A stretch of 64,000 nucleotides of DNA from an uncultured Eubacteriales bacterium. Lineage in GTDB: Bacteria > Bacillota > Clostridia > Oscillospirales > Acutalibacteraceae. Positions 30,705 to 33,680 of this stretch are shown piece by piece (the first letter of the stretch is position 1; each line of letters opens with the position of its first letter). A model generated the notes under the pieces. It saw only the letters and a list, made by a program, of their open reading frames with translations, ran no database searches and was not told where the DNA came from. The DNA is taken from contig CBCPMW010000008.1 of assembly GCA_965120375.1 (NCBI GenBank), positions 6,091 through 70,090 of the forward strand, written 5' to 3'. A program made the translations under genes and the position numbers.

Positions 30705-33680
30705 GTGGGAGACGAATTTACGGATATTAAGCCGGAGGACGAAGAAGTTCCTGGTTTTGAAACAGATCCGGGGAGTGCTTTAGGGAAAGACTTAGGAAAT
30801 ATTCTGAAAAAAAGCGGCCACAGAGATTATTACCCAATTAGTGAAGGTAATCTTCCATATATTCAGGCTTGTGCCTATTTCTTCACACACGATGGGAATA
30901 AAGAACGACGCGGTGATAGCGGTAAGATTAAAGCTCTCGACGCGTATATGGGAAAAATAGGATCTAGTCTTGCTGGAAAAACAGATGAGAACATTGATGC
31001 AAGTAAGGATAACTATGCTAAATGTGCGGAAATATCCTGTACCGTTGTTACGTACGTAAACGATATAGCGAAAAACAGTGGACACGACGGTAAAGACGGA
31101 TTTGAGAAGGCGCTTAAAGAGGTTTGGCCAAAAGATGAAAAAAAAATGCCAGGGGTCCCTGCGGGATTTATCGGGAAGTTTAAAGGCGGCAAAGGGGGCG
31201 AAAAAGGTAAATCGGGAAGCTACGACCCAGAAGAAGATAAAGGCCAGATCGTACAAGACGTGCGAAAAGGTGCCCAAAGTGAAATTGGGCAGCTTCTTGC
31301 GAATTGGAACGAAGTTGACGCTAAAGCAAATGATAACACGATAACTGGAAGAGTTGACCATTTAGGTGTACGGGAACTGGGACTCAACTTTTTTCTGCAG
31401 GAGATGCCAAATGTTCTGAAAGATATAGAAACAGGAATAAAAGGTTCGCATCTTTCTGGCTTTTTTAACAGTCACGTATACAAAACGAAGCTAACAAAAG
31501 GCCTGCAGAGGAGCGATTCTTACCTAAAAGACGCACAAACGAACCTGCAGCGAACGGACGCATATCTAAAAGAGTTTGGGGAAAGGCTCCAAGCCGGGGA
31601 TGAATCACTGGAAGTAGATTCAAGTTGGCCCGGAATAAACGAAGAAGGTGAGCGAAAGCTTGTAAGGATTGACGTAGACACGTTTGACTACGCAAGTGAC
31701 GCGCTCTGGGGAATAGTAGATATGTGTAAAATTGTTCTAAATACATTGTCCTATAGTGCGCAGCTCTACGGAAACTATAACACTCTCCAGCAAAAATATG
31801 AGAATCAAAGAAGTGAAACAAGGGAGTCTAATGCTAATCTCCTCAAAAGTTTAGAAGAGGACATAGGAGAAGGCGAAGGTGAAAGAACAAGAAGTGGCGG
31901 TGCAAAAAAGTCTAAGGAAGATGAGTCCTCGGAAGAAGGCGACGACGAAAATGTTTTCGAAGAAGGAGAAGAAAAAAAATCAGATAAGAAAGCAGAGAAT
32001 AATTCCGGAGCTGGCGCGAAAGAAGAGAAAAAGGAAGTAGTTTACGCTCCAAAGCTCGGAGGGATTCCGGAAGAAGAGTTTCATAAGAAGCTGAACGCAG
32101 ACGCCCAAAATTTAGCAAAAGCGTGTATAGTTTTACTGAGGTTAAGTGATATGGAACTTGAAGAAGGCAAAGAAAAGGGAGGGAGAAGAGGGAAGAAAAA
32201 ATCCAGAAAAGGAGGAGATTTTGACGACGGCGATGATTATTCAGGAGTTAAGAGGAGAATACGTCCAGGCAATCCTGAAATGGATTTACTTGGGGAAGAG
32301 CCGCTGTATATTGCAAAGTATCGCGGAGATGCCGAAGTCTATGAACTAAATATAGATCTTCTAAAAGATATAGATAAAAATGATGATTCTCCAGAAAGAG
32401 ACTTGCTTGCAGATGATGTCAAGGTTAAAGCAGGCGATCCAGAGCGAGATCTACTTGCAGATGAAATTATAGACGAAGTAGACTCTCCAGAGAGGGATCT
32501 GCTTGCAGATGAAATTATAGACGAAGTGGAATCTCCAGAGCGAGATCTACTTGCAGATGAAATTGTAGACGAAGTGAACTCTCCAGAGAGGGATCTGCTT
32601 GCAGATGAGATTGTAGACGAAGTAGACTCTCCAGAGAGGGATCTGCTTGCAGATGAAATTATAGACGAAGGCGGAATACCGGAAGGCGGGGATATTGAAA
32701 GAGACTTATTGTTAGATGATGAAAATGGTGAAGATGGGAAATCTAAAGCAGCTGCAGCAGTGAAAGTAGCTGAACTGAAATCTTTATCTGATGAAATTTC
32801 AAATAAAGGGAGTGGTGTATCTTCAGAATCTGAACTTGCAGAAGATTCAGATGGTTTAGATACAGGTTCGTTAGATGACTTTTTTGGTGAAGAAGAGTAT
32901 AAGGAACTGAAAAAAAGAGGCAAGAAACCTGCAAAGATATTAGGTAAGCCTGATAAAAACTTTAACAATGTTATCGGATGGACGGCTATTCGTGGCCTTA
33001 TGATAATGTTTGGAACGGCTATTTCTTCGGCTTTCGGAAGTGTAAATGAGATAGAAAATTATAGTAAAGAGGAAAAAAATGCAGCAGCTGATGTAATATT
33101 TAAAAAAGTCGCAGAATTGCTAAATAAAGACATAACAGAATTCAATATAGAGATGCACAAGATGAATGGAAAAGTAAAATCTAAAAAAGAACTGAAAGAA
33201 AGACAAATATATGTAAACAAAAAAATTACGAAAAAGTATGATGATGTAGTAAAATCTTTTGATATAATAATAAAAAATACTGAAAAAATTGTTGGAGAAA
33301 ATAAAGGTTCAGTTCAAGACAATTATGAAGGTGGAGAATATGGAGATTATACAGAATCCGGAGGTTATGAAGAATATGATCTCTATAGAAATTTATCTGA
33401 AGTGCTTGTTGATCTAAAATCGTGGAGAAAAATAAATAAAAATAAGCTTTTAAGTCTTGGAAAGAAAGACCGTTTTTTCAGGGGCGATCAAGAAGCAGAA
33501 CATGATCAGAGAAGCAAAAGGATTTTCATGGACATTTTTGGTGAAGTGGAAAAAGTGGGTGTGAAAGATTTCGCAAAGTGGATTTACGGTGAAAAGTATA
33601 AAATTAAAGGAAATAGTTTTTTACTTAGAAATTCTAAAGTACACGGCACAGGTAACAATTACCTAAAATTTTATAAATAA
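30705..33680 (+). CDS. giant acidic repeat protein (991 aa), function unknown
   Basis: GTG start 7 nt after RBS AAAGGAGGG. There is no signal peptide. It has long Glu/Asp/Lys low-complexity tracts and seven to eight copies of a PERDLLADE-type motif. One hydrophobic segment (VIGWTAIRGLMIMFGTAISSAFG) lies near aa 755-780. The C-terminal region is Lys-rich and helical. Confidence 0.75.
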   Translation: MGDEFTDIKPEDEEVPGFETDPGSALGKDLGNILKKSGHRDYYPISEGNLPYIQACAYFFTHDGNKERRGDSGKIKALDAYMGKIGSSLAGKTDENIDASKDNYAKCAEISCTVVTYVNDIAKNSGHDGKDGFEKALKEVWPKDEKKMPGVPAGFIGKFKGGKGGEKGKSGSYDPEEDKGQIVQDVRKGAQSEIGQLLANWNEVDAKANDNTITGRVDHLGVRELGLNFFLQEMPNVLKDIETGIKGSHLSGFFNSHVYKTKLTKGLQRSDSYLKDAQTNLQRTDAYLKEFGERLQAGDESLEVDSSWPGINEEGERKLVRIDVDTFDYASDALWGIVDMCKIVLNTLSYSAQLYGNYNTLQQKYENQRSETRESNANLLKSLEEDIGEGEGERTRSGGAKKSKEDESSEEGDDENVFEEGEEKKSDKKAENNSGAGAKEEKKEVVYAPKLGGIPEEEFHKKLNADAQNLAKACIVLLRLSDMELEEGKEKGGRRGKKKSRKGGDFDDGDDYSGVKRRIRPGNPEMDLLGEEPLYIAKYRGDAEVYELNIDLLKDIDKNDDSPERDLLADDVKVKAGDPERDLLADEIIDEVDSPERDLLADEIIDEVESPERDLLADEIVDEVNSPERDLLADEIVDEVDSPERDLLADEIIDEGGIPEGGDIERDLLLDDENGEDGKSKAAAAVKVAELKSLSDEISNKGSGVSSESELAEDSDGLDTGSLDDFFGEEEYKELKKRGKKPAKILGKPDKNFNNVIGWTAIRGLMIMFGTAISSAFGSVNEIENYSKEEKNAAADVIFKKVAELLNKDITEFNIEMHKMNGKVKSKKELKERQIYVNKKITKKYDDVVKSFDIIIKNTEKIVGENKGSVQDNYEGGEYGDYTESGGYEEYDLYRNLSEVLVDLKSWRKINKNKLLSLGKKDRFFRGDQEAEHDQRSKRIFMDIFGEVEKVGVKDFAKWIYGEKYKIKGNSFLLRNSKVHGTGNNYLKFYK
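32385..32723 (+). repeat. in-frame 48-bp tandem repeat array (five near-identical units at 32436-32675, with degenerate flanking units)
   Basis: Units start at 32436, 32484, 32532, 32580 and 32628. Each encodes (D/S)PERDLLADEI(I/V)DEV(D/E/N). Degenerate copies lie at 32385-32435 and 32676-32723. Confidence 0.95.

Follow-up and report, generated by a model that had tools for sequence, protein, structure and literature searches.

A gene for a phage-tail-like tube protein lies in a 64,000-nucleotide stretch of the genome of an uncultured Eubacteriales bacterium (Clostridia, Acutalibacteraceae; GenBank assembly GCA_965120375.1, contig CBCPMW010000008.1, positions 6,091 to 70,090), referred to here as the window. 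It is followed on the same strand by a gene encoding a protein of 991 amino acids (aa) that resembles no known family. What is such a protein doing beside a tube component? We propose that the 991-aa protein, from here on called the partner, is a lineage-specific component of an extracellular contractile injection system (eCIS), most likely a cargo or effector that would join the particle through the presumably co-expressed tube initiator encoded by the upstream gene. This reading, which is drawn from gene content and sequence comparison, is given a probability of about 40%.

The upstream gene (29857-30645, + strand) encodes a 262-aa protein that matches PF19266 (CIS_tube) with a Pfam E-value of 3e-8 and is a tube initiator of the Afp7/Cis7 type; it is the single PF19266 match in the genome. 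The gene stops at 30645, 59 nucleotides (nt) before the partner open reading frame (ORF), which occupies positions 30705-33680 of the + strand, starts with GTG and has no internal stop codons; the ORF is real and intact. A ribosome-binding site, AAGGAGGG (30690-30697, + strand), was read from the sequence 7 nt 5′ of the GTG, and no terminator-like site was found on the + strand between the two genes. The two-gene operon is preceded by a predicted sigma-70-type promoter, TTGACA-17-TATAAT (29771-29799, + strand), the prediction consisting of a 12/12 consensus match only. A preliminary description of this DNA had reported the 991-aa ORF and, from the 59-nt gap and the separate ribosome-binding site, its coupling to the tube-like gene. 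The first claim was confirmed by the intact ORF and its purifying selection, and the second was supported by the conservation of the pair, as described below.

The preliminary description also implied a tube-like gene without a machine, and in this respect it has to be corrected. A contractile injection system (CIS) cluster is present outside the window, at C14:127134-146364 (L006). Its first half encodes, in order, a 372-aa protein of unknown family, the sheath, a gp19 tube protein, a 125-aa protein and a gp19 protein with a coiled-coil tail. The second half encodes a 959-aa helical protein, a GPD-type hub, the spike, gp25, a 1011-aa wedge protein, Baseplate_J and P2_I, and the last gene of the cluster encodes a 598-aa Big_2/ETX_MTX2-like protein. 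The 575-aa sheath protein matches PF04984 and PF17482, the gp19-type tube proteins (171 and 454 aa) match PF06841, and the wedge matches phrog_6. In the baseplate core, the hub, spike, gp25, Baseplate_J and P2_I proteins match PF05954, PF04717, PF04965, PF04865 and PF09684, the PF05954 and PF04717 matches being under the Pfam cut-off although in the expected gene order. The order of the cluster in the source genome of the window (G000) is kept in two further genomes of the same genus (G001 and G002) and in one of a sister genus (G009). The flanks carry nusA, infB, truB and genes for a TLC translocase, a serpin, LemA and a TPM-domain protein. No phage head or packaging genes were found next to the cluster and, because nusA, infB and truB flank it, the cluster is not a prophage. 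In the second tube protein (L006:4382-5746), the gp19 domain is fused to a long coiled-coil tail rich in Glu, Lys and Ala. This tail differs widely in length among relatives, the total lengths being 454 aa in the source genome and 647, 774, 578 and 442 aa in the orthologues L027, L045, L046 and L043.

A further locus, C7:83476-87911, encodes a Pvc16_N cap protein of 226 aa (PF14065, E-value of 9e-24) and a 695-aa AAA ATPase (PF00004, E-value of 1e-31) that we infer, from adjacency only, to be the Pvc15/Afp15-type orthologue. The wider C7 locus (77759-87911, L047) also includes a gene for a 538-aa CarboxypepD_reg-like, proline-rich protein, and the cap and ATPase genes are preceded by those of a 976-aa HAMP, a 510-aa MORN-repeat and a 385-aa Cu_amine_oxidN1 protein. 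Judged by these predicted domains, the genome holds an otherwise complete eCIS-type gene set that is spread over at least three loci, the window initiator included, and what the C14 cluster is missing is exactly the PF19266 initiator.

The place of the missing gene can be recognized by comparison. A profile of the initiator family (A6) found homologues in three genomes of the same taxonomic order (G261, G142 and G198), all of them PF19266 proteins (E-values of 1e-13 to 5e-35). There the gene is located inside the CIS cluster, in the slot between the gene for a long helical tape-measure-like protein and the hub gene. In G000, G001, G002 and G009 this slot is empty, just a gap of 129-213 bp, and the initiator is found at another locus with a large gene next to it. 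In a sample of 61 genomes of the family, PF19266 was present in three of the four genomes with a long-sheath CIS and in no others; the fourth genome is 70% complete. The simplest reading of these sequence comparisons is that the initiator left the CIS cluster in an ancestor of the small-genome clade and would still serve the machine in trans. The G198 cluster (L043:8408-9909) carries two tandem PF19266 paralogues, of 240 and 255 aa.

Gene-neighbourhood conservation, a check suggested in the preliminary description, was evident for the pair. The partner gene lies 3′ of the relocated initiator gene at a distance of 1-59 nt in at least eight loci (G000, G001, G002, L008, L014, L015, L017 and G009), and the linkage persists over three upstream contexts, which carry ABC exporters, PrsW or HtrA. 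Secretion of the partner by the divergent ABC exporter pair was considered and rejected, as the contexts of L008, G002 and L015 lack the ABC genes. The partner in the sister genus (G009; 775 aa) has a comparable layout, with tandem repeats that are acidic, a hydrophobic stretch rich in Met and the helix RPVIRLLALIA; no similarity to the other partners, and hence no homology to the family, could be detected. The exception to the linkage is G023, in which the initiator gene is followed by about 1.9 kb without any ORF of 90 aa or more (L022:6211-8150). A scan of this stretch against Rfam found nothing, and it may represent a decayed partner gene. The sheath locus of G023 appears truncated after the tube gene (L026).

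While the linkage is conserved, the partner itself is not. Between G000 and G002, amino acid identity is 83% for the sheath, 61% for the flanking PrsW, 43% for the hub, 33% for the initiator and 32% for the tape-measure-like protein. The partners of the same two genomes share no similarity detectable by BLASTP, and the G002 orthologue was found by profile only (E-value of 5e-9). Of the CIS parts compared, none has diverged between species as fast as the partner. Its length also varies within the genus (991, 936 and 857 aa), whereas that of the tape-measure-like protein is steady (959, 965 and 967 aa).

Within the species the picture is one of constraint. Comparison with the gene of strain L009 (8001-10976) showed 11 synonymous and five non-synonymous differences (pN/pS of 0.12), and in the N-terminal domain nine synonymous and no non-synonymous ones. 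In addition, the 11 strain variants found in independent assemblies are all 991 aa long. Purifying selection acts on the partner within the species; the counts are small and their direction is clear. The nine synonymous differences in the N-terminal domain correspond to a pS of 0.037, compared with 0.004-0.007 elsewhere in the gene; the clustering may be due to a recombination tract or to uneven mutation, the counts being small.

The base composition of the region is unusual. The GC content between 30 and 33 kb is 0.41-0.43 and that of the flanks about 0.30. The GC content at third codon positions (GC3) of the tube gene (0.36) and that of the region of the partner gene coding for the N-terminal domain (0.38) both lie above the 95th percentile of the genome (0.347), and the value for the C-terminal third (0.23) is ordinary for this genome. 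Putative AhpC and RpsB ORFs, assigned solely by their N-terminal sequences, have high GC3 values as well (0.41-0.42), from which we reasoned that the high GC3 could reflect expression level and not foreign origin. Recent horizontal transfer was rejected as the source of the high GC content on the basis of these two ORFs and of synteny. The pair is syntenic across a genus whose members share as little as 61% identity in a housekeeping protein encoded beside it, and for this reason composition is no evidence of recent foreign origin, in agreement with the caution already voiced in the preliminary description. Elsewhere in the window, KdpB is cut to 347 aa (35557-36600) between intact kdpA and kdpC genes, and the same truncation is found in L008 (411 aa).

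The partner matched no family in Pfam, PHROGs, PADLOC or a sequence search of the PDB, so the earlier statement that its family is unknown was borne out. Pfam searches with six orthologues at E-values up to 5 returned only inconsistent, scattered noise (Holin_LLH, Presenilin, Macoilin), and neither the protein nor its orthologues matched a surface or spore-coat family in Pfam. The full-length protein and its segment aa 30-380, used as queries in word-indexed searches for homologues, retrieved nothing but the protein itself, and a phmmer search of its own genome found no paralogue. A profile of the N-terminal domain run against 1.84 billion representative proteins recovered the query and one 936-aa orthologue (P0003) only. 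Genome searches added orthologues in G001 (more than 755 aa) and G002 (857 aa), and three further ones were located on Logan contigs, each of which breaks inside the gene. The short-read contigs carrying an orthologue (L014, L015, L016, L017 and L018) all end within the partner gene, presumably at the tandem repeats. The near absence of the family from protein catalogues is in part due to this fragmentation. At the level of the sequences compared, the partner family is new.

The part of the protein that can be aligned throughout the genus is the N-terminal domain (aa ~40-485; 30822-32159, + strand), which is predicted to be mostly helical, is conserved, shares 26-30% identity with the orthologues, and is interrupted by a Glu/Lys-rich disordered insert (aa ~381-450). 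AlphaFold2 models of this domain had pLDDT values of 37 (three sequences) and 45 (seven sequences) and were helical with one hairpin. Foldseek comparison of the models with the PDB and BFVD, which the preliminary description had recommended, found nothing with an E-value below 0.03 or a TM-score above 0.2, and the family could not be identified by this route either. A Cys/His enzyme (C107/C112...H219) was considered and rejected, since the G002 orthologue lacks C112, H219 and YDPEED. The domain is followed by a basic Lys/Arg/Gly linker (aa 486-530; 32160-32294, + strand) with a net charge of +3 and a pI of 9.5, and the orthologues carry a basic stretch at the matching position. As the preliminary description had noted, there is no signal peptide: the N-terminus is acidic and without a hydrophobic leader. 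A cell-wall anchor was not found either.

The next region is an acidic tandem-repeat array (aa ~522-672; 32268-32720, + strand) with seven ERDLL[AL] cores (aa 564-665) and five near-identical 16-aa units; TRF measured a period of 48 and 4.9 copies at 32438-32670, in support of the repeat array seen earlier. The repeat units are species-specific, yet they have a common [DE]-R-[DEN]-hydrophobic-hydrophobic-[FAL] core at an equal position, with four related cores at the corresponding position in L008, two in G001 and one in L014. This pattern was derived from the same sequences on which it was tested, and the shuffle statistics are descriptive only. The partner has a pI of 4.8, with 21% D+E and 15% K+R. 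It had been called hyper-acidic, which is an overstatement: nearly all of the charge comes from aa 576-680 (net -36), and the pI of the orthologues is 5.1-6.1, which gives a family range of 4.8-6.1.

Beyond the repeats, a hydrophobic helix, VIGWTAIRGLMIMFGTAIS (aa 756-774; 32970-33026, + strand), includes residues of a KP...W...R pattern conserved in the family, and K748, P749, W759 and R763 are invariant in alignment A2. The helix described earlier does exist. However, its mean Kyte-Doolittle hydropathy over a 19-residue window is 1.44, and the matching segment reaches only 0.9-1.1 in L008, G001 and G002, so that the segment is, as far as these sequences indicate, a conserved amphipathic W...R helix and not a conserved membrane span. 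In view of the hydropathy and pI values of the family, both "transmembrane" and "hyper-acidic" fit this orthologue and not the family as a whole. The Lys-rich C-terminal region (aa 786-991; 33060-33677, + strand) is helical and weakly conserved, with a conserved DIF motif near the end.

Several of these observations are consistent with a cargo. The initiator is displaced yet remains the sole copy, the rest of the eCIS is intact at two other loci, and purifying selection within the species is combined with the fastest divergence between species. Cargos of eCIS are typically variable and lineage-specific, and they lack signal peptides. A gene with a PF13699 (DUF4157/eCIS_core) domain was not found in G000, G001 or G002, nor was the domain found in the partner or its orthologues, and in G142, where the initiator is in the cluster, PF13699 is present nearby. 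In Streptomyces CISs, a small partner protein can tether large helix-rich effectors to the core of the baseplate, and these effectors can be packed in the tube (PMC13277306; PMC11126660). The absence of PF13699 from the clade, together with these published effectors, is the reason why the cargo reading was favoured. According to the proposed mechanism, the initiator would form a low-copy ring that nucleates the tube, and co-production with it would put the partner at the baseplate core as tube polymerization begins. The partner could then lie within the tube-proximal lumen or be attached to it, and contraction would expel it. The helical conserved N-terminal domain would be the docking or packaging part. 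The target would be acted on by the amphipathic W/R helix and by the variable acidic repeats, in which the E-R-D/E-hydrophobic-hydrophobic core recurs.

The preliminary description knew of no counterpart to this arrangement. That was too strong, as Sle1 and Sle2 of the Streptomyces lividans phage-tail-like particle (PMC13277306) and Tme of S. davawensis (PMC11126660) are alike in logic. They too are large, helix-rich proteins without close characterized homologues, each is encoded next to a small protein that contacts the baseplate core, and Sle2 co-elutes with the tube initiator SlpT2 (PMC13277306). The likeness extends, here from the genes alone, to a conserved N-terminal part for docking and a C-terminal "functional" part that varies between relatives. 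The partner does not, however, share the sequence features that define those proteins. Unlike them, it is paired with the Afp7/Cis7-type initiator itself and not with a DUF4157 adaptor, in a genome without PF13699; the pair is far from the sheath gene; and the host is a Clostridia member of 1 Mb and not an actinomycete. Unlike Sle1 and Tme, the partner has no remote homology to tape measures in PHROG, Pfam, PDB or hhalign comparisons. The machine itself is of the type of the PVC and Afp systems, whose cargos are loaded with help of the Pvc15/Afp15 AAA ATPase: it has a Pvc16_N cap, an AAA ATPase, a PF19266 initiator and gp19 tubes. The partner differs from their eCIS_core effectors in lacking this domain and in not being located at the end of the structural cluster. 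Another analogy is with the orphan hcp and vgrG genes of type VI secretion systems (T6SS), tube or spike paralogues away from the main cluster that have a carried effector immediately 3′, with effector families that turn over fast. In the T6SS the dispersed gene is an extra copy, whereas here it is the sole copy and encodes the initiator instead of the bulk tube protein.

Other points count against a cargo. No toxin, enzyme or known packaging domain was detected in the partner by Pfam, PHROGs, PADLOC or PDB sequence search, and the models of the N-terminal domain (pLDDT 37-45) are too poor for use. Described eCIS tube lumens have been reported to be negatively charged, and the segment with a net charge of -36 would fit badly in such a lumen. 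The consensus promoter and the raised GC3 suggest high expression, an oddity for an initiator present in six copies and a cargo of low copy number. In G023 the relocated initiator has been kept with no partner ORF beside it, and the partner is therefore dispensable for the initiator in that genome. The G009 partner, with no sequence similarity to the others, may be a non-orthologous neighbour. Finally, the phyletic pattern comes from one small-genome clade and could for that reason represent a single evolutionary event.

Next after the cargo reading comes a CIS accessory that is not ejected, i.e., a factor for assembly, timing or anchoring, such as a chaperone or hold-back factor for nucleation by the initiator, or a CisA-like adaptor that would position or trigger the particle at the envelope. 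The operon coupling and the phyletic evidence are the same as those behind a cargo, and the splitting of the initiator from the structural operon, with a consensus promoter of its own, resembles a regulatory rearrangement. CisA, a bitopic membrane protein that the Streptomyces coelicolor CIS requires for firing, is such an accessory and is absent from purified particles (PMC12237407). It has a mostly unstructured N-terminal part, a single hydrophobic segment and a C-terminal domain, a layout that the partner recalls with its long, partly disordered N-terminal part, KKRGKKPAK followed by the hydrophobic helix, and C-terminal domain (PMC12237407). However, the membrane span of CisA is experimentally established, and the partner segment is insufficiently hydrophobic in three orthologues (0.9-1.1), where it is not kept as a span. 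CisA is, moreover, predicted to touch the peripheral wedge protein Cis11 and not the buried initiator, and it shares no sequence similarity with the partner. The initiator is buried in the baseplate core in solved CIS structures (PMC12237407), which makes it a poor handle for an envelope anchor. Factors that touch conserved parts usually evolve more slowly, whereas here BLASTP fails within the genus. We regard an accessory role as rather unlikely.

Less probable still is that the partner is a mere neighbour, a lineage-specific cytoplasmic or surface protein, for instance a disordered scaffold or an adhesin-like repeat protein, whose linkage to the initiator is historical. No CIS-related domain was detected in it, repeat-rich fast-evolving proteins are frequent in host-associated bacteria, and in G023 the initiator is without a partner. 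Nonetheless, the close same-strand linkage outlasts divergence beyond the reach of BLASTP and three upstream contexts, the protein has neither a signal peptide nor a cell-wall anchor, and a similarly built partner lies 3′ of the initiator in another genus (G009).

The initiator and partner could also constitute a new device, assembled around a recruited tail part, that no longer serves the CIS, but this is improbable to a further degree. The pair stands alone among housekeeping genes with its own promoter, and the initiator has diverged (PF19266 E-value of 3e-8, 33% identity within the genus). On the other hand, the CIS cluster of the same genomes has no initiator, there is no second PF19266 gene, and the pair is confined to genomes that carry a long-sheath CIS. 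Had the initiator copy left the machine, an otherwise intact CIS, whose sheath keeps 83% identity within the genus, would lack an initiator of that type. A second tape measure or tube-lumen scaffold setting tube length is very improbable: the partner is large, predicted helical, repetitive, fast-evolving and adjacent to the tube initiator, as tape measures are in the T4, PBSX and R-type pyocin clusters, but the canonical slot is already held by the 959-aa helical protein of near-constant length, the partner varies in length and is encoded at another locus, it has no PHROG tail match, and a relationship to the tape-measure-like family of the cluster was rejected by hhalign (probability of 0.1%).

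Its genomic context links the new family to a machine of a known type that is split in an unusual way, and the function is what we infer from that context. A bolder version of the cargo role, which we consider doubtful, is that the partner is the first of a new eCIS cargo class that is recruited through its coupling, operonic as well as physical, to the initiator, with no DUF4157 adaptor and no cluster-end position. Its array of short acidic E-R-D/E-hydrophobic-hydrophobic motifs would act multivalently on a target in another cell, in genome-reduced, ATP-importing Clostridia whose machine is distributed over three loci under separate control. For most contractile injection systems no cargo is known, because effectors share no common signature. 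If the proposal is true, searching 3′ of a displaced tube initiator would be a new rule for finding CIS effectors, and the loading route would be a new one, usable for engineering eCIS delivery vehicles. Repeat-induced contig breaks hide such genes, as illustrated by the two full-length members among 1.84 billion representatives.

For the organism, a supposedly stand-alone tail part becomes, as predicted from its genes, a piece of a complete machine scattered across three loci of a 1.0-Mb genome. The genome, of 1.02 Mb and 100% complete, encodes just 5′ of the CIS cluster a TLC-family ATP/ADP translocase (PF03219, E-value of 4e-135) and a serpin (C14:122687-126557; L028:11687-15557). In a genome of this size, the two genes suggest energy parasitism or a dependent lifestyle. 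They hint at a host- or partner-associated life, in which an injection device would be central.

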